A program made the translations under genes and the position numbers. From positions 118,993 to 182,992 of the forward strand of contig CAZWXQ010000001.1 in the NCBI GenBank assembly GCA_964637955.1: 64,000 nucleotides of DNA, written 5' to 3'. Of the stretch, positions 45,115 to 51,439 are shown in pieces (the stretch's first letter is position 1; each line of letters starts with the position of its first letter). Below the pieces are notes generated by a model that worked only from the letters and a program-made list of their open reading frames with translations, ran no database searches and was not told the DNA's origin. This DNA is from an uncultured Gammaproteobacteria bacterium. Lineage in GTDB: Bacteria; Patescibacteriota; Microgenomatia; Levybacterales; UBA12049.

Positions 45115-45597
45115 ATGGATTCTGCGACTGAAACATTTACTGGAGAAAAAGAGATTGATGTTAGGCCTAAAGTTCAAATTGAATTCTTCGGATTTAGCCA
45201 TAATCCATTAAACTTAGATGTAGTACCGTATTTACGAAGCACATTTGAAGATCATTTAGCAAAATCACCAAATACTACTCTTTTTTTTGAAAGCGCTGAA
45301 GGTACACAGGAGGATTCTGATTTTCAAAACGAAGTTATAGAAAAATATGGGTTTAGAGCATTGCTTATATCAAGTTTAATTAATCAGAACGATGATGATA
45401 TTAGGTTGATTGGAAGTCCCGAGAACGTACAGAGGAGAATAAATGAAATTGAGACATCTATTATGAGCGGTGAACTAAGAATTGATCTTCTTCCTCTTCA
45501 AGATCTTCAAATGTATTTAATATATAGAGATCGATCAGTTAAAAGAGCTATACCCTTTTTCATTTCAAAGAGAAGCGCATTCTCCAGACGTGATTAG
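45115..45597 (+). CDS. Hypothetical protein (160 aa)
   Basis: ORF. Confidence 0.35.
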   Translation: MDSATETFTGEKEIDVRPKVQIEFFGFSHNPLNLDVVPYLRSTFEDHLAKSPNTTLFFESAEGTQEDSDFQNEVIEKYGFRALLISSLINQNDDDIRLIGSPENVQRRINEIETSIMSGELRIDLLPLQDLQMYLIYRDRSVKRAIPFFISKRSAFSRRD

Positions 45598-46144
45598 GAA
45601 AGCGCGAGGTCTTCGTCCGGAAGCTAACAGAATGTTTTCGGTTGCAGATGCTGCATGGCAGGAGGGTAGATTTGAAGTATTTAAAAAACTTGCTGATTCT
45701 TACCATAAATTATCAGTTGCAGGAGGTAGATACAGAGAAGAAGAAGCTGCTGAAATGCTTAAGAAAAAAACTAATAAATTAATGATGTCGACTGACGGTG
45801 GATCAATTTTTGTATTAATGGGTAGAAATCACTCAAGCATACTTGATCCACTAAGAAAAAAATTTAAAAAAGGGACTGTAGATTTCAAAGTATCAGGTGG
45901 TCTATCGGATTCTCTTGATAGATTAACGCCTATGCAGAGATATTTATCTATGGTAATTTTATTTAAGCTTGAGGATGAATATAACGTGCAGGAGAAAACT
46001 TTAGAATTTGGAAACAAGTTTACGGTAACTCAGGTTAAAATTGAAGAAATTGTTGCCAATTTAAAAGAAGAAGAAATTAAAGATTTATGCGAAACACAAG
46101 TTGAACTTCTTAAATTTATTAGAGAAAAAGGCTTAAACGCATGA
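45590..46144 (+). CDS. Hypothetical protein (184 aa); GTG start overlapping upstream ORF by 8 nt
   Basis: ORF. Confidence 0.35.
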   Translation: MIRKARGLRPEANRMFSVADAAWQEGRFEVFKKLADSYHKLSVAGGRYREEEAAEMLKKKTNKLMMSTDGGSIFVLMGRNHSSILDPLRKKFKKGTVDFKVSGGLSDSLDRLTPMQRYLSMVILFKLEDEYNVQEKTLEFGNKFTVTQVKIEEIVANLKEEEIKDLCETQVELLKFIREKGLNA

Positions 46145-46569
46145 AAAAAAGAGAGTCCGTAGGTAGATGCCCACTCGCTCTCTTTCTCTGCCAGCACTCA
46201 CGTCACCATCTCAATGCTTCGGATCCACAAATATTTTGCATCTCGACGGACCATCTCGTCCTTTTGTCATAACGCGGCATACTTTTACCCAGAGAAGTGA
46301 CTTCCGAGGAAGCCATCCTTAGCGGTATGCCCAGCTCTTGTTTGCCCTGCCATAGCGTACTACTTCAAACAACCTAAAGCTTAAATGCGCTAGGGGATTC
46401 CAAAACCCTTCGAAGAAAGATTTCGATTACCCCCATGCGGAGTCTATAAAGATTAGTCCGTTTAGATTGGATTGTCAATTAGTTCAAAGTATATCTCAAT
46501 ATTTCTTTTGACTTTATAAATAAAAATATCTATCTTGCATTTTTGTTCTCTTCAAATTATTATTAGGAC
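46145..46569. ncRNA. GC-rich (~50%) ORF-free block in an AT-rich genome; candidate structured ncRNA gene (tmRNA- or RNase P RNA-sized); strand and identity unresolved
   Basis: No ORF >=60 aa on either strand over ~425 bp; abundant local and long-range complementarity (e.g. AGAGAG…CUCUCU, GUAGGUAGAUGC…GCAUCU, GGAC…GUCC); minus-strand 5' segment GGGGGUAAUCGAAAUC…UUCGAAGGGUUUUGGAAUCCC is reminiscent of a tmRNA tRNA-like domain. Confidence 0.3.
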
Positions 46570-47013
46570 ATGAAAATCACTAGTCCTGCCTTTGAAGATA
46601 GCGACATGATTCCTGCTACATATACATGTGATTCAGATAACGTTAATCCCCCTCTTTTAATTTCAGATGTTCCAGAAGGGACTAAAAGCTTGGCTCTTAT
46701 TATGGATGACCCTGATGCGCCAGGTGAAGCATTCACTCATTGGATTATGTGGAATATTCCACCAGATACTACTAGGATTGAAGAAAATGATTGGGTAGAT
46801 GGAGCAGAACAAGGTATGAATGATGGTGGAGATTTAGGATACACAGGTCCATGTCCGCCGGAAGGAATTCATCATTATTATTTTAGGCTTTATGCTCTAG
46901 ATTCAGTGTTAGATTTACAAGGAGAAGTAACGCGAATGGATTTGGAAATGCAAATTAGTAGCCACATGATTGATGAAGCAGAGCTCATTGGTCTTTATAA
47001 ACTTCAATCATAG
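46570..47013 (+). CDS. YbhB/YbcL-family PEBP (Raf kinase inhibitor-like) protein
   Basis: …DDPDAPG…THW…GYTGPCPP…HHYYFRLYALD… PEBP signature. Confidence 0.8.
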   Translation: MKITSPAFEDSDMIPATYTCDSDNVNPPLLISDVPEGTKSLALIMDDPDAPGEAFTHWIMWNIPPDTTRIEENDWVDGAEQGMNDGGDLGYTGPCPPEGIHHYYFRLYALDSVLDLQGEVTRMDLEMQISSHMIDEAELIGLYKLQS

Positions 47014-47074
47014 CTCCACATCATTATCCTATAGCTTTAATTTTGCTTCAAAATAGAGTATAATTCCCCAGATT

Positions 47075-48667
47075 ATGGAAAGAAAAGCAGCTCATGGTTA
47101 CACTCCGGGTTTAGATGCGCAGCTGGATTCGGACAGAGGATTCAGCGTGAATATAGAAGTAGAGTTATTAGCAAATGAAAGGCAAACGCTTTTTATGCTT
47201 GGTCAAGGCAATAGCTTAAATTTTGTATCAGGCCAGCTTGGTGTCGAGGTTGGCAATCTCAAAACAAATTTGAAAACAATGAGAAGTCGTTTAGGAGTAA
47301 ATACAAATCTTGGAGCTTTGAGAATGGCGATGCAGCAGAGAATTTTAAGTGCTCAAGAGATTTTGCCTGATGATTATACCGATGATAATTTTAGATATTT
47401 AACCCCTGAACAATTAGATGCTCTGAATAATTATTACGATAATCATGATCTGAAAAGCGATGAGGAGATTGCGGCTAAACTAGGTTTATCTGCGGAGGAT
47501 TTTCTTCAAGATCTTTATAGAGGTTTTGGTGTAATTAATGCAAAGACTATTTTAAACGCTGCAGTCATGATTCAAGCTCAAAGAGATAGATTAATTCCTG
47601 CATCTGATCCTGTTTCTGAGAATGAAGAAATTGGTCAGCTAAGCCCCGATTCACCTCGAGTTAGAGAAGTAAAAAGATCGATTAGCCCTAGAGAGCTTGA
47701 GGTATTTACACTTAAGGCAAAAGGATTAATAAATAAGGAAATAGCTGCATCGATGGGTGTCTCTGAGCAAACAGTTAAGAATCATGCAGCTTCTGCATTT
47801 GTTAAGCTAGGTGTTCAGTCCTCAGGGGAAGCGATAAGGCAAATTATTGGTATTGGGCTTATAGATATATCTGAATTATTGCCAGCAGAATTTGATCCTT
47901 CTGTGATGGGAGAAGTGTCAGATAAAGAAGCTGAGATTATAAAACATTTAGGGACTTCTGGGGATTCAAATGTCGCTATCGCTTTGAGGGTTGGCTCGAA
48001 TGAGAACACTGTTGGAAGTCGAATTTCAAAATCCATGAAAAAAACAGGCACTGTCAGTCGAGAGCAAATTATGGTTTTTTATCTCGGTGCAAAAAAGATA
48101 AAAGAAGAACAGGCTGTAGAGATGGGGGTAGATCCTGAATCCGTAGATCCTTTTGACTGGAGAAGAGAAGATCAGGAATATGAAATGCCATCATTGTCAC
48201 CCAGAGAGCTAGATGTTCTACGGGCTGTAAGTAGAGGTTTATCGAATGCTGAAATTGCAGGATTTTTGGGAAAATCTGAATATATGGTAAAGGTACAGAT
48301 GAGCTCTATTTTATATAAGTTAGATGCTAGGAATAGAGTAGTAGCAGTTAAGAAAGCAATTGATTTGAAGTTAGTTGACATAGGGGAAATTACAAGTGAT
48401 GAATTGGAACTAATTAATTCTCTTTCAAATAGGGAGAAAGAATTACTAGAATTAATAGCTTCAAGTGGACTTTCGAATAAAGAGCTTGCTCAACACTTGG
48501 GTATCTCAAAGTATACAGTTAACTGTCATATGTTGACCTTGTTGGGCAAGTTAGATGTAGCTAGTAGAGTTGAAGCAATGACTTTATGGATAAAAGCAAA
48601 TAGAATAATCGATTCGACTTCTGAAGCTGAACAAGATGTGGTTTATTCTTCAGAAGCAGTTATTTAG
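47075..48667 (+). CDS. Protein composed of six tandem LuxR/GerE-type HTH modules (three canonical, three degenerate)
   Basis: Repeated …SPRELEVLxLxAxGLSNKEIAxxLGxSExTVKxHxxxxxxKLxVxxRxxA… units at ~aa 30, 105, 200, 280, 370, 440. Confidence 0.6.
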   Translation: MERKAAHGYTPGLDAQLDSDRGFSVNIEVELLANERQTLFMLGQGNSLNFVSGQLGVEVGNLKTNLKTMRSRLGVNTNLGALRMAMQQRILSAQEILPDDYTDDNFRYLTPEQLDALNNYYDNHDLKSDEEIAAKLGLSAEDFLQDLYRGFGVINAKTILNAAVMIQAQRDRLIPASDPVSENEEIGQLSPDSPRVREVKRSISPRELEVFTLKAKGLINKEIAASMGVSEQTVKNHAASAFVKLGVQSSGEAIRQIIGIGLIDISELLPAEFDPSVMGEVSDKEAEIIKHLGTSGDSNVAIALRVGSNENTVGSRISKSMKKTGTVSREQIMVFYLGAKKIKEEQAVEMGVDPESVDPFDWRREDQEYEMPSLSPRELDVLRAVSRGLSNAEIAGFLGKSEYMVKVQMSSILYKLDARNRVVAVKKAIDLKLVDIGEITSDELELINSLSNREKELLELIASSGLSNKELAQHLGISKYTVNCHMLTLLGKLDVASRVEAMTLWIKANRIIDSTSEAEQDVVYSSEAVI

Positions 48668-49868: not shown

Positions 49869-51161
49869 TTATTTTTCGATTAATTTATAACCCCGTGTTT
49901 TTACTGTCACGATTTCATAATTTTTCTTTTGACTATTCATTTTTGCTCTAAGTCTAGCGATAAGTCTATCTATTGCCCAGTCTGTAACTCCAATTTCTTC
50001 AGCTTCTGGCCATACTGCTTCGATTATCGCTTCTCTTTCGCAGATTTCATTTTTGTTTGCTTCCAAGAAATTTAATAGTAAAAGTTCTTTTTTGCTCAGT
50101 TCTGAAGCATTCTTTTCTTTTTTCCTTTCTTCGCTTTTTGATTTAACGAAGTGCTCAAATATTGGATTAAATATCTTGTTTGTTTTTTGTTCAAAAAATC
50201 CTGTATTTATAAGATAATCTGCATTTTTAATTTCTTCAGCGATAAGTTTTTCCCGACCTGCTACCTTTATGAGTATTTCCTGCTCTTTTGGACTTAGGCT
50301 TTCCCAAAGTTCTTCTGACTGGAGAGAAATTCTCTCATCATTTTTTAGAAAATCAAAAAGTTCCGTTTCGTCTATGGGTTTTGATTGTTCTCCGATTGCA
50401 ATCAATGCAAATAGTAGATATTGAGTATGACCATCCACATATTTAAGAAGCTCCTGAGTAAGCCCAGGTTTTAGACTAAGATGGCTTTCATTTACACTTG
50501 ATTCAAAAATTATTTTAGTATCCTGTTTTTCTGCCGGTTTTATATAGTGGTTATCTGCGAATACAGAAACTGATTGCTTGGTAAACACTTCAGGGACCAG
50601 ATAATCTAGAGTTCTGTCACTAGTAAAAACATAAGAAAGTTTTCTGTGAGTCGCGTCGATGAGGCCTTGGAAATTGGCAAAAAAGTCATGAGTAGTAGCA
50701 TCTTTTATTCGGTCAAATCTGAGGAAGAAGATTGTCGGTAGATAACCTTTTTCAGTAATAAAGACCAGACTTTTTCTAAGATTCTCTATAGTTAAAAATA
50801 AGTCCTGAGATTGGATAGAATCTAAGAAATATTCTTCAACTTGTTTTTGAATTTCCAGTGGAAGATTTGAATTTTCAACACTGTCAGAAATTCTTTTAAA
50901 AGTAAGAACCCAAAATGGGTAAATTTCTCGTTCTACCAGATCATTTAAATCAACAGGGATAAAGAAATGCTTTTCTGACTTGAGATATTTTTCATTTATT
51001 CCGGGATGGTATAAAAAGTAGCGCAGGAAATTACTTATTCCTACTCTTTTCATTCCAGTAAGAACTACATTTCGCCTATTATTAATCGCGCTTGCGAGCT
51101 TTTTTGTTTCGTCTTTTCTGAAATCAAAAGGATAATTTACTTCAATAACATGAGAATTCAT
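49869..51161 (-). CDS. Transcriptional regulator: N-terminal NTPase-like domain + C-terminal OmpR/PhoB-type winged-helix DNA-binding domain
   Basis: C-terminus …EREAIIEAVWPEAEEIGVTDWAIDRLIARLRAKM…VKTRGYKLIE matches Trans_reg_C. Confidence 0.5.
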   Translation of the reverse strand: MNSHVIEVNYPFDFRKDETKKLASAINNRRNVVLTGMKRVGISNFLRYFLYHPGINEKYLKSEKHFFIPVDLNDLVEREIYPFWVLTFKRISDSVENSNLPLEIQKQVEEYFLDSIQSQDLFLTIENLRKSLVFITEKGYLPTIFFLRFDRIKDATTHDFFANFQGLIDATHRKLSYVFTSDRTLDYLVPEVFTKQSVSVFADNHYIKPAEKQDTKIIFESSVNESHLSLKPGLTQELLKYVDGHTQYLLFALIAIGEQSKPIDETELFDFLKNDERISLQSEELWESLSPKEQEILIKVAGREKLIAEEIKNADYLINTGFFEQKTNKIFNPIFEHFVKSKSEERKKEKNASELSKKELLLLNFLEANKNEICEREAIIEAVWPEAEEIGVTDWAIDRLIARLRAKMNSQKKNYEIVTVKTRGYKLIEK

Positions 51162-51439
51162 CCCGTTAGAGACAGCGAGCGTTTTAATCTGTTTTTGAGA
51201 TATCTTTTACCCATACCGGATTTGAGATATTTTTCTCGCGTCGTTGCATCCTCCTCATGCAAGCTTGCTTCATAGTATATCAATTTAAATTGACCTCTTC
51301 CTTTTGTGTATGTTGATCGATCATTTTGATGTTCATTAAAACGCTTGCGTAAATCATTAGTATATCCCGTATACCATTTATTGCTTTTCAAACTTTGTAA
51401 AACGTAAACATAATAAAAGCGGTCTCTAACGGGATTCAT
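51158..51439 (-). CDS. GIY-YIG nuclease-family small protein (UPF0213-like)
   Basis: YYVYVLQS…WYTGYTNDLRKRFNEH. Confidence 0.65.
   Translation of the reverse strand: MNPVRDRFYYVYVLQSLKSNKWYTGYTNDLRKRFNEHQNDRSTYTKGRGQFKLIYYEASLHEEDATTREKYLKSGMGKRYLKNRLKRSLSLTG

Follow-up and report, generated by a model that had tools for sequence, protein, structure and literature searches.

The 530-residue protein encoded at positions 47075..48667 on the + strand of the window (the whole 64,000-nucleotide stretch of DNA analyzed, likely that of a member of the Patescibacteria (CPR)) is an array of three A-B di-modules, (A-B)x3, in which short conserved connectors alternate with long acidic linkers. The LuxR/GerE helix-turn-helix (HTH) domain from which the array is built is a single-copy output module that needs a sensor domain and non-covalent dimerization, and to our knowledge it is otherwise known only in that single-copy role. 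Across the whole class of proteins described here the domain is used differently, being chained head to tail in two alternating types, with conserved connectors and no sensor. The reading that we favor, and to which the sequence evidence gives a somewhat better than even chance, is that the array protein is a DNA-binding regulator of the cytoplasm, carrying several heads on a single chain of three A-B di-modules and lacking a sensor.

Six GerE-type modules in one chain

Residues 28-511 of the protein are taken up by six four-helix modules of ~65 residues each (M1 to M6), and all Pfam and NCBIfam matches are to HTH or sigma-4 models overlapping these same modules. The Pfam GerE model (PF00196) scores 169.1 bits over the whole protein (E = 1.5e-50), with five stretches at E <= 10. 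When the protein is scanned segment by segment against the GerE gathering cut-off of 23.5 bits, M3 (59.8 bits), M5 (50.7 bits) and M6 (57.4 bits) each pass individually, which is above the limit of one or two significant domains that had been set beforehand. M4 (17.2 bits, E = 0.004, profile positions 4-55 of 57) and M1 (13.0 bits, E = 0.08, profile positions 6-57 of 57) are sub-threshold, and M2 scanned alone has no match to Pfam GerE, becoming visible only when profiles are compared with profiles. The split into three canonical and three diverged modules made by the first-pass annotation is thus the one found here.

The diverged modules were compared by hhalign with a GerE profile made from single-domain LuxR proteins. 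M1 scores 58% alone and 98.2% with orthologues, M4 82% alone and 98.4% with orthologues, and M2 90.6% alone (P = 1.3e-6) and, once the two nearest orthologues are included, 95.8% (P = 6.7e-9); the reversed control in this test scores 0.4%. Ortholog-derived profiles of all six modules reach 98.4-99.8% against the same single-domain LuxR profile. A family-iterated module HMM gives i-E values for M1 to M6 of 1.7e-4, 0.079, 2.4e-23, 2.7e-6, 2.9e-22 and 9.9e-21, respectively. Sequence comparison thus shows homology to the GerE domain for every one of the six modules, even for the three that fail the Pfam cut-off, and the six LuxR/GerE modules originally proposed for this reading frame are all recognized at the profile-profile level.

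The predicted structures have the four-helix fold and are superposable on solved LuxR-type DNA-binding domains. Single modules superpose at 0.7-1.1 Å on the DNA-binding domains of DegU and LiaR in Foldseek, and at about 1 Å on GerE and on NarL-DNA. The PDB sequence matches of M3 are EL222 and GerE. Even M2 has four helices in both of our AF2 models, one of which, a single-sequence prediction (pLDDT 40), was used for secondary structure only.

The modules are unaccompanied by any of the domains with which they would be expected to work in a classical regulator. The protein has no match at E <= 10 to the receiver domain (Response_reg, PF00072), and thus no phosphorylation control. There is no LuxR autoinducer-binding domain among the Pfam matches, and the SdiA and PA1136 models of NCBIfam match the HTH region only, far below cut-off. 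No LAL/MalT-type ATPase or TPR family is found in Pfam, and the MalT model aligns over positions 836-891 of 903 only (67 bits versus a cut-off of 537). Likewise, the matches to the NarL, NarP and FixJ models of NCBIfam are confined to the C-terminal HTH part of each model and fall far short of the cut-offs. The absence of a sensor or receiver noted in the first-pass annotation is therefore borne out by Pfam and NCBIfam. Membership of a CRISPR CARF/Csa3 or other defence system was considered and rejected, since the PADLOC models CARF3, CasR and Csa3 match mainly through their C-terminal HTH (for example, positions 199-254 of 279).

The overlap with sigma-4 models (Sigma70_r4_2 at 75 bits and Sigma70_r4 at 56 bits over the same modules) could be taken to indicate an RNA-polymerase-directed factor, a sigma mimic or decoy whose sigma-region-4-like modules dock on the beta-flap or on a sigma/anti-sigma. 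We regard this as very improbable. GerE far outscores sigma-4 for every canonical module, and sigma regions 2 and 3 are both absent: region 2 has no match, the only sigma-70 models found being those for region 4, which overlap the GerE modules with lower scores, and Sigma70_r3 gives one match (E = 0.0036 over 15 residues) with no qualifying stretch.

The divergence of three of the modules might also be read as a sign of an artefact, whether through mis-assembly or gene fusion or through the decay of a pseudogene made up of duplicated LuxR fragments, but this explanation is effectively refuted. The open reading frame starts with ATG and is intact over all 530 codons. A second, independent Logan assembly contig carries the identical protein, and so the reading frame is not an assembly artefact. 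We sought DNA-level repeats inside the gene and found none, indicating that the module duplications are old. In addition, Levybacteria and other metagenomes contain orthologues whose modules come in the order seen here, the diverged M1 and M2 among them, and synteny is conserved, with neighboring genes 59-62% identical to those of the Levybacteria locus. The gene had been described as GC-richer than average, which is numerically correct (0.377 versus 0.353 ± 0.030 for 50 ORFs) but unremarkable, at z = 0.79 and with 15 ORFs GC-richer still.

The array is built from A-B di-modules

Module classes were assigned using class A and class B HMMs built without the query protein. These call M1 as A, M2 as B, M3 as A, M4 as B and M5 as A, and find M6 ambiguous or A-like, so that five of the six positions are assigned correctly. 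All parts of the array gene described below are on the + strand.

The first di-module is the most diverged. M1 (residues 28-92; 47156..47350) is a basic A-type module (pI 10.8; A-class HMM 22.7 versus 1.8 for B), and is joined by the acidic A-to-B connector 1 (residues 93-105; 47351..47389; AQEILPDDYTDDN), a degenerate form of an LVPxDFDP motif, to M2 (residues 106-172; 47390..47590), the most diverged of the modules, which is B-type and acidic (pI 4.65; B-class HMM 19.9 versus 5.2 for A). The long acidic B-to-A linker 1 that follows (residues 173-199; 47591..47671) has low pLDDT and is covered by only three sequences. The second di-module begins with M3 (residues 200-264; 47672..47866; pLDDT 96-98), a canonical A-type GerE module with TVKNH in its recognition helix. 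Connector 2 (residues 265-278; 47867..47908; ISELLPAEFDPSVM) is of the canonical LVPxDFDP type and is modeled as two short helices with pLDDT of at least 95. It leads into M4 (residues 279-343; 47909..48103), a basic B-type module (pI 9.7; B-class HMM 48.1 versus 19.4 for A) whose helix 4, spanning residues 329-350 in AF2, extends into the long acidic B-to-A linker 2 (residues 344-370; 48104..48184). This linker has a net charge of -9 and a conserved GxDPExVDxF motif. In the third di-module the canonical A-type GerE module M5 (residues 371-433; 48185..48373; A-class HMM 51.2 versus 29.7 for B), with MVKVQ in its recognition helix, is linked by the diverged A-to-B connector 3 (residues 434-446; 48374..48412; VDIGEITSDELEL; pLDDT 93-97) to M6 (residues 447-511; 48413..48607). 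M6 occupies a B position and has a canonical GerE score. It bears the one-residue insertion (IASSG) of the B type yet is A-like by class HMM (48.6 versus 37.9 for B), making it the sole exception to the A/B rule.

The lengths of the linkers alternate along the chain (10/23/10/23/9 residues). The earlier description of six consecutive copies is thus right in its count of modules, but these are not equal copies and instead form three A-B di-modules with alternating linkers. The array protein belongs to an (A-B)n tandem GerE di-module sub-family that we define in this analysis, no curated family being available. AB, ABAB or ABABAB patterns are found in about 25 proteins outside the set used to build the HMMs, relatives in the sub-family carry one to four AB units, and stand-alone AB proteins of ~200 residues exist. 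The start-to-start spacing from A to B is mostly 76-78 residues across the sub-family (range 73-81), whereas that from B to A is variable, at 64 to 102 residues. In the array protein the A-to-B spacing is 81 (M3-M4) and 76 (M5-M6) by module-HMM starts, M2 being missed by that HMM, and 79, 79 and 76 by module boundaries. The LVPxDFDP-type connector motif is common to 15 other top matches, and appears in the array protein as LLPAEFDP between M3 and M4, as the degenerate ILPDDYTD between M1 and M2, and in degenerate form between M5 and M6. Both the connector motifs and the long-linker motifs are kept by the orthologues.

AF2 with a 71-sequence alignment models residues 190-520 (M3-M6), connectors included, at a pLDDT of 95-98 (93-98 in the connectors), and reaches a pTM of 0.56 although 190 residues are unmodeled. 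M1-M2 are poorly modeled, and the alignment covers them with only three sequences. The long B-to-A linkers are partly helical. The single dip in confidence within residues 190-520 (pLDDT 64) lies at residues 361-370, in B-to-A linker 2, and marks one predicted hinge. Since the A-to-B connector is conserved, of near-fixed length and confidently modeled, the di-module is both the structural and the evolutionary unit of the array.

Tandem GerE proteins are widespread

The first-pass annotation called this architecture unusual, but it is not a one-off. With E <= 1e-10 as the limit, an exhaustive search yielded at least 182 cluster representatives, and among the 150 relatives listed nearly all carry 2-25 tandem modules; the search for similar multi-GerE proteins proposed at the outset has therefore uncovered a widespread group. 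An apparent uniqueness of the full-length protein, suggested by a word-index protein search that matched only the query itself, reflected the limit of that index. Other routes were less productive: single-domain response regulators dominated an alignment-based homologue search, which recovered none of the known multi-module relatives, a genome-contig search keyed on a generic GerE motif brought up LuxR regulators of the ordinary kind, and a connector-only profile, which is too short, gave 85 candidates and no significant match against a database of 5.8e9 sequences. Relatives with tandem GerE arrays are automatically annotated as 'LuxR C-terminal-related transcriptional regulator', and we found no literature on such arrays and no experimental study of any member in the searchable literature. 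Tandem LuxR-module proteins are thus a widespread and apparently unstudied class, of which the array protein is a real but not unique member.

The closest relatives among the matches are from Candidatus Levybacteria and Patescibacteria. MBI2420518.1 (P0014, Candidatus Levybacteria) and MEK9207404.1 (P0013, Patescibacteria) match at E = 1e-67 to 1e-68 with 31-36% identity, and arrays of this type share with the array protein the A-B order, the connector and long-linker motifs, and a syntenic neighborhood. They differ in the number of di-modules, with four in P0014 and two in the further relative P0018, as compared to three in the array protein. Orthologues also vary in their recognition-helix residues, and the evolutionary rate of the array gene is about double that of its neighbors. 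The differing di-module counts in syntenic orthologues, together with this fast evolution, suggest ongoing retargeting. We tentatively extend this to the view that (A-B)n arrays might serve Patescibacteria as a modular means of reading DNA that evolves fast. Each rigid di-module would stand in for a LuxR dimer and read one operator-sized segment, and gain and loss of di-modules would retune the composite target in both length and identity. This is a speculative proposal to which we assign only a small probability.

GerE arrays are also present in giant proteins of Mycobacteriales, where they are combined with WXG100-like, glutamine-deamidase toxin and hydrolase domains. Examples are WP_255059115.1 of Mycolicibacterium arenosum (7,764 aa) and its cluster representative MCP9271556.1 (7,703 aa), WP_462145903.1 of a Mycobacterium sp., and OMC13533.1 of Mycobacterium sp. 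SP-6446. Like the array protein, the giants have tandem GerE-type modules with a period of ~75-80 residues, of which they carry 7-25. Their arrays are homogeneous, with all modules A-like, whereas the array protein has two classes, and their position equivalent to NarL Lys188 is degenerate (39% K/R, 25% D/E). The WXG100-like and toxin domains, seen in P0022 and P0019, are absent from the array protein. These arrays sit in apparent secreted toxins, pointing to a use of GerE modules beyond classical gene regulation and speaking against a regulator reading. The association with type VII-secretion and toxin domains poses the question of what role a 'DNA-binding' array has in a secreted toxin.

The giants also raise the idea that GerE modules have been co-opted as a non-DNA-binding helical repeat scaffold, serving either as a rigid rod or as a platform for protein interactions, as may hold in the giants themselves with their 7-25 modules alongside WXG100-like, toxin and hydrolase domains. 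Conserved and very confidently modeled connectors, as in solenoid repeats, would fit such a scaffold, as would the acidic character of M2 and the linkers. We nevertheless think it distinctly unlikely for the array protein, because the (AB)n proteins have two module classes and keep the DNA-contact signature (64-69% K/R versus 39% in the giants), five of the six modules are basic, and secretion and toxin domains are absent from the array protein (Pfam and NCBIfam). Its N-terminus, as read off the translation, has no hydrophobic signal-peptide-like stretch.

DNA-contact residues and proposed function

The modules were aligned to NarL in a register verified against the real PDB sequence. A Lys aligned with NarL Lys188 is present in M1, M3 and M5, and M1 also keeps the Lys aligned with NarL Lys192. 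The NarL base-contact positions are L/Q/Y in M2 and N/C/L in M6, and M4 has Gly at the Lys188 position. At the key base-contact position the B-position modules M2, M4 and M6 thus carry L, G and N, residues unusual for the B class, so that fewer than six heads may be at work. Across the family, K/R occupies the Lys188 position in 64% of A-type and 69% of B-type modules, as compared to 73% of bona fide single-domain LuxR regulators. All modules other than M2 are basic (pI 9.0-10.8), and the whole protein has a predicted pI of 5.0, being acidic because of its linkers.

These features are consistent with a DNA-binding regulator in which each di-module would be a rigid two-headed unit replacing the non-covalent dimer of ordinary LuxR-type regulators. 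With the di-module standing in for the dimer, the chain would read an extended composite site of several half-sites as a monomer. Since they keep the Lys aligned with NarL Lys188, we take the A-type modules M1, M3 and M5 to be the probable main DNA-reading heads. Backbone contacts would probably be added by the basic M4 and M6. Contact of the acidic M2 with DNA is improbable, and its L/Q/Y at the NarL base-contact positions make it an unlikely reading head. With no sensor domain present, control of activity would fall to the expression level of the protein or to its partner proteins.

The array protein differs in this respect from known members of the fold. GerE of Bacillus subtilis is a 74-residue single domain that dimerizes non-covalently; the array protein compares with this stand-alone HTH (PDB 1fse) as six covalently linked domains of two alternating classes. 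The output domains of NarL/FixJ regulators (the NarL-CTD-DNA complex, PDB 1je8, and DosR, LiaR, DegU and VraR) have the same fold and the recognition-helix motif TVKxH, and relative to these regulators the array protein would replace or supplement dimerization on DNA by covalent tandem linkage. AraC/MarA/Rob proteins have two HTH per monomer and C2H2 zinc-finger arrays have conserved TGEKP linkers. Together with the eukaryotic Myb R1R2R3 and paired domains these offer an analogy only, in that small modules with short conserved linkers in one chain allow a monomer to read an extended asymmetric site; they are unrelated folds or families, and no homology was detected or is claimed. If the di-modules are DNA-reading covalent pseudo-dimers, they would represent a new bacterial design principle, that of monomeric readers with tunable site length, with a bearing on gene regulation in Patescibacteria. 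Such modular readers would play in bacteria the part of zinc-finger or Myb arrays.

A search for operator-like repeated motifs near the array gene or in the window found none, and a DNA target near the gene was discarded as there is no suitable tandem array in the window and there are no convincing repeats upstream. The missing nearby repeat would sit well with a low-specificity nucleoid-organizing protein that bridges DNA or coats it through its six heads and acidic linkers, as would the presence of many heads in one chain with no sensor domain, the degenerate base-contact positions in M2, M4 and M6, and the differences between orthologues in recognition-helix residues and di-module number. 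Harder to reconcile with nucleoid organization is that Lys188- and Thr186-equivalents are retained in the family about as often as in sequence-specific LuxR regulators. The protein as a whole, with a pI of 5.0, also differs from typical basic nucleoid proteins, and the family occurs as rare single clusters and not as a conserved core gene. We judge a nucleoid role to be unlikely, though deserving of some weight. Of the two functions suggested in the first-pass annotation, multi-site DNA binding thus appears the better supported, and DNA organization is retained as its rival.

The gene neighborhood

The array gene adjoins a gene for a 147-residue PEBP-family protein (46570..47013, + strand; Pfam PBP 134.5 bits). 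A PEBP gene lies beside the array gene in all three of the closest genomes, and that of the window is 62% identical to the Levybacteria copy. We considered PEBP as a functional partner and rejected it: it is not beside four more distant members, the whole neighborhood is syntenic with the Levybacteria locus, and the PEBP and array genes each seem to have their own -10 box. The adjacency is accordingly downgraded to inherited synteny. A GC-rich island upstream of the PEBP gene was rejected as a candidate RNase P, having no Rfam match at E <= 1 and no similarity to the Levybacteria locus. A candidate RNA is placed at 46145..46450 on the - strand. A tRNA search of the window found none, and an Rfam scan of the window gave no family match at the gathering threshold and thus neither rRNA nor any other marker RNA.

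Inspection of the sequences shows that GAGTATAATTCC (47054..47065, + strand) contains a perfect -10 box, which precedes the ATG of the array gene by 12 nt. A consensus promoter scan missed this box because it has no good -35. The Levybacteria orthologue has an identical 12-mer at the corresponding position, and the element is probably the array gene's own promoter, which would give a near-leaderless mRNA.

Domain content of the array protein

The array gene (47075..48667, + strand) starts at an ATG and encodes a protein of 530 amino acids, exactly the coordinates and length proposed in the first-pass annotation. An independently assembled Logan contig encodes the same protein with 100% identity and no internal repeats were found in the gene at the nucleotide level, so it is neither an assembly artefact nor a recent duplication; we give almost no credence to the array being an artefact. 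Across its full length the protein matches Pfam GerE (PF00196) in five stretches (169.1 bits, E=1.5e-50). Beyond GerE, Pfam and NCBIfam scans of the protein return only HTH or sigma-4 models on the same stretches, bearing out the earlier claim that it has no sensor or receiver domain. A sigma-4 mimic directed at RNA polymerase, which these matches bring to mind, strikes us as very unlikely. The defining extra domains of response regulators, quorum-sensing receptors, LAL/MalT-type regulators, sigma factors and CARF regulators were tested for and are absent from the protein, and its PADLOC matches are mainly to the HTH tails of CARF/Csa3 models. By domain content we place it in the LuxR/GerE HTH superfamily.

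When the protein was split into six segments (M1 to M6) and each was scanned with the GerE model at a cut-off of 23.5 bits, M3 (59.8 bits), M5 (50.7) and M6 (57.4) exceeded the cut-off, M4 (17.2) and M1 (13.0) fell below it with nearly full-length alignments, and M2 gave no match. Three segments, rather than only one or two, are thus significant, and the division into three canonical and three diverged modules made on first reading stands. Profile-profile comparison with a GerE profile from single-domain LuxR proteins recognizes all six claimed module positions as GerE at 98.4-99.8%. In stricter comparisons M2 scores 90.6% alone (P=1.3e-6) and 95.8% when the two closest orthologues are added (P=6.7e-9), with a reversed control at 0.4%, while M1 and M4 score 58% and 82% alone and 98.2% and 98.4% with orthologues. 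A family-iterated module HMM finds six modules in the array ORF and none elsewhere within the 64-kb window, and four helices per module are present in all six modules of AF2 models computed with and without an alignment. On these comparisons we regard the weak modules M1, M2 and M4 as genuine GerE-type modules. The gene had also been described as GC-richer than the genome, which is numerically correct but carries no meaning (0.377 against 0.353 +/- 0.030 for 50 ORFs; z=0.79; 15 ORFs are GC-richer).

The modules alternate in A-B pairs

Linker lengths from M1 to M6 alternate (10, 23, 10, 23 and 9 aa), and alignment with the closest relatives distinguishes two module types. The A-type modules, at the odd positions, close with a conserved connector of the GLIDLxxLVPxDFDP type. 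In the B-type modules, at the even positions, one to three residues are inserted ahead of the HTH, and the final stretch, TGAKNRTQ..VFYLEAKR, leads into an acidic linker in which the motif GEDPxxVDxF is conserved. Class HMMs trained on relatives only, with the query left out, place M1, M3 and M5 in class A and M2 and M4 in class B; M6 has the position and insertion of a B module, yet scores slightly higher as A. Judged by its modules and connectors, the protein is (AB)x3, a chain of three A-B di-modules.

Applied to the modules of 160 retrieved proteins, the class HMMs give clean alternation in about 25 proteins outside the training set, including AB (P0053, P0068, P0090, P0097, P0117), ABAB (P0023, P0054, P0055, P0070) and ABABAB (P0035) patterns. 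Measured from start to start in the retrieved proteins, an A module and the B module after it are mostly 76-78 aa apart (range 73-81), and a B module and the next A anywhere from 64 to 102 aa. The LVPxDFDP motif is present in 16 top matches. The alternating patterns, near-fixed A-to-B spacing and shared motif therefore identify the di-module as the evolutionary unit, and it also occurs alone as proteins of ~200 aa.

Without an alignment, AF2 modeled the array protein at a pLDDT of 40; with a 71-sequence alignment the mean pLDDT was 79.5 and the pTM 0.56. In the latter model residues ~190 to ~520 reach pLDDT 95-98, including both A-to-B connectors of this region, which fold as short helices, and most of the M4-to-M5 linker, with helix 4 of M4 reaching residue 350. 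The sole dip within this region is to 64 at residues 361-370. M1-M2, for which alignment coverage is three sequences only, are poorly modeled. From this model we infer two rigid di-modules (M3-M4 and M5-M6) linked via a short hinge, and the pTM, which exceeds expectation for independent 65-aa domains, suggests defined inter-module packing.

DNA-contact signature and proposed role

Five of the modules are basic (pI 9.0-10.8) and M2 is acidic (pI 4.65); the linkers are all strongly acidic (pI ~4.05) and the complete protein has a pI of 5.0. We placed the modules in register with NarL, verified against the actual PDB sequence; Lys188, Val189 and Lys192 are the residues of NarL that contact bases in the NarL-DNA structure. 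At the Lys188 and Lys192 positions the A-type modules carry K and K (M1), K and A (M3) and K and S (M5), and the B-position modules L and Y (M2), G and S (M4) and N and L (M6). In this register the B heads of the array protein are atypical at the contact positions, and DNA contact has probably been lost in M2. Across the sub-family of relatives with alternating modules, (AB)n, the Lys188 position is K/R in 64% of A-type modules (D/E 7%) and 69% of B-type modules (D/E 11%), near the 73% (D/E 9%) of single-domain LuxR regulators, and the DNA-reading signature is therefore kept in the sub-family.

On balance we favor a sensor-less, single-chain, multi-headed putative DNA-binding regulator, in which each A-B di-module, as a rigid unit, would stand in for the LuxR dimer that otherwise forms non-covalently, and all three would jointly read an extended composite site. 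No operator-like repeats were found near the array gene or in the window. A nucleoid organizer of low specificity is an unlikely alternative.

A large family of tandem-module proteins

The six-module architecture had been thought unusual, but it is not unique. A word-indexed search recovered just the array protein at full length, a result superseded when 1.84 billion cluster representatives were searched exhaustively with HMMER. That search gave 13,689 matches at E<=1e-3, of which 182 reach E<=1e-10 and 11 reach E<=1e-30. Among the 150 matches listed, nearly all have 2-8 tandem modules with a period of ~76-80 aa, and a group of giant proteins has 4-25 modules each. Databases auto-name the relatives 'LuxR C-terminal-related transcriptional regulator', and full-text literature searches gave no account of tandem LuxR/GerE arrays. 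The main interest of the array protein lies in its A-B di-module design, its variable repeat number and this large, apparently unstudied family.

The giants of the Mycobacteriales combine 7-25 tandem GerE modules with polymorphic-toxin features. They include proteins from Mycobacterium sp. LTG2003 (P0019, WP_462145903.1, 3371 aa), with five papain-fold glutamine-deamidase toxin domains and an alpha/beta hydrolase, Mycobacterium sp. SP-6446 (P0022, OMC13533.1, 1273 aa), with an N-terminal WXG100-like domain, Mycolicibacterium sp. CAU 1645 (P0017, MCP9271556.1, 7703 aa) and Nocardia (P0015/P0016); all except P0022, a 'hypothetical protein', bear the LuxR name. No paper joining LuxR arrays to such toxins was found. 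Their modules are degenerate at the Lys188 position (K/R 39%, D/E 25%), and a helical scaffold that does not bind DNA, as perhaps in these toxin-associated proteins, is a quite improbable role for the array protein.

The best two matches are a partial protein from a Patescibacteria-group MAG (P0013) and a 746-aa Candidatus Levybacteria protein annotated 'hypothetical' (P0014), whose contig (L082) is syntenic with the window: a PEBP-family gene adjoins the array gene, with FtsK and a 430-aa Trans_reg_C protein nearby. The array proteins (window 47075-48667, L082 3118-5358) are ~33% identical, against 62% for PEBP and 59% for the 430-aa protein, and di-modules number three in the window, four in the Levybacteria orthologue and two in the relative P0018. 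By this comparison the array gene evolves ~2x faster than its neighbors, with its repeat number changing. Given the synteny, the window most probably derives from a CPR bacterium related to Levybacteria.

Probable promoter and gene neighborhood

A 12-mer with a perfect -10 box (GAGTATAATTCC), identical in the window and the Levybacteria orthologue, lies 10-12 nt 5' of the ATG. It suggests that the gene has a conserved promoter of its own and a near-leaderless mRNA. In the three closest genomes (the window, L082 3118-5849 and the P0018 contig) the PEBP-family gene (46570-47013, +, in the window) and the array gene are direct neighbors on one strand, with the order of the two swapped in Levybacteria. 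Next to four more distantly related array genes no PEBP gene was found, and the adjacency is therefore treated as probable inherited synteny; PEBP could conceivably be a partner of the sensor-less regulator.

Upstream of PEBP, a ~300-nt GC-rich intergenic island in this AT-rich genome (46145-46450, - strand) is a candidate for a structured RNA that has escaped annotation. Its minus strand has a folding energy of -105.9 kcal/mol, compared with -88.8 +/- 4.6 for shuffled sequences (z=-3.75; none of 100 did as well). The strand terminates in a long hairpin and a U6 run, resembling an intrinsic terminator, with a promoter-like site just upstream on the same strand (46499-46471); the plus strand does not stand out (z=-0.43). 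The island has no Rfam match at E<=1, contains no tmRNA or tRNA and does not resemble the Levybacteria locus. The 64-kb window has no tRNA and no Rfam family at the gathering threshold, hence no rRNA or other marker RNA.

The 430-aa protein near the array gene (window 49869-51161, -; L082 1737-3029, -) carries an OmpR/PhoB-type winged helix at its C-terminus (Trans_reg_C, residues 352-426) and ~350 N-terminal residues without a Pfam family, and looks like an uncharacterized one-component regulator. A 93-aa ORF (51158-51439, -) overlaps the start of its gene by 4 nt, and its translation (YYVYVLQS...WYTGYTNDLRKRFNEH) looks by eye like a putative GIY-YIG nuclease domain. Two further ORFs, of 160 aa (45115-45597, +) and 184 aa (45590-46144, +), have no Pfam family; they overlap by 8 nt, and the gene calls on the independent Logan contig include both.
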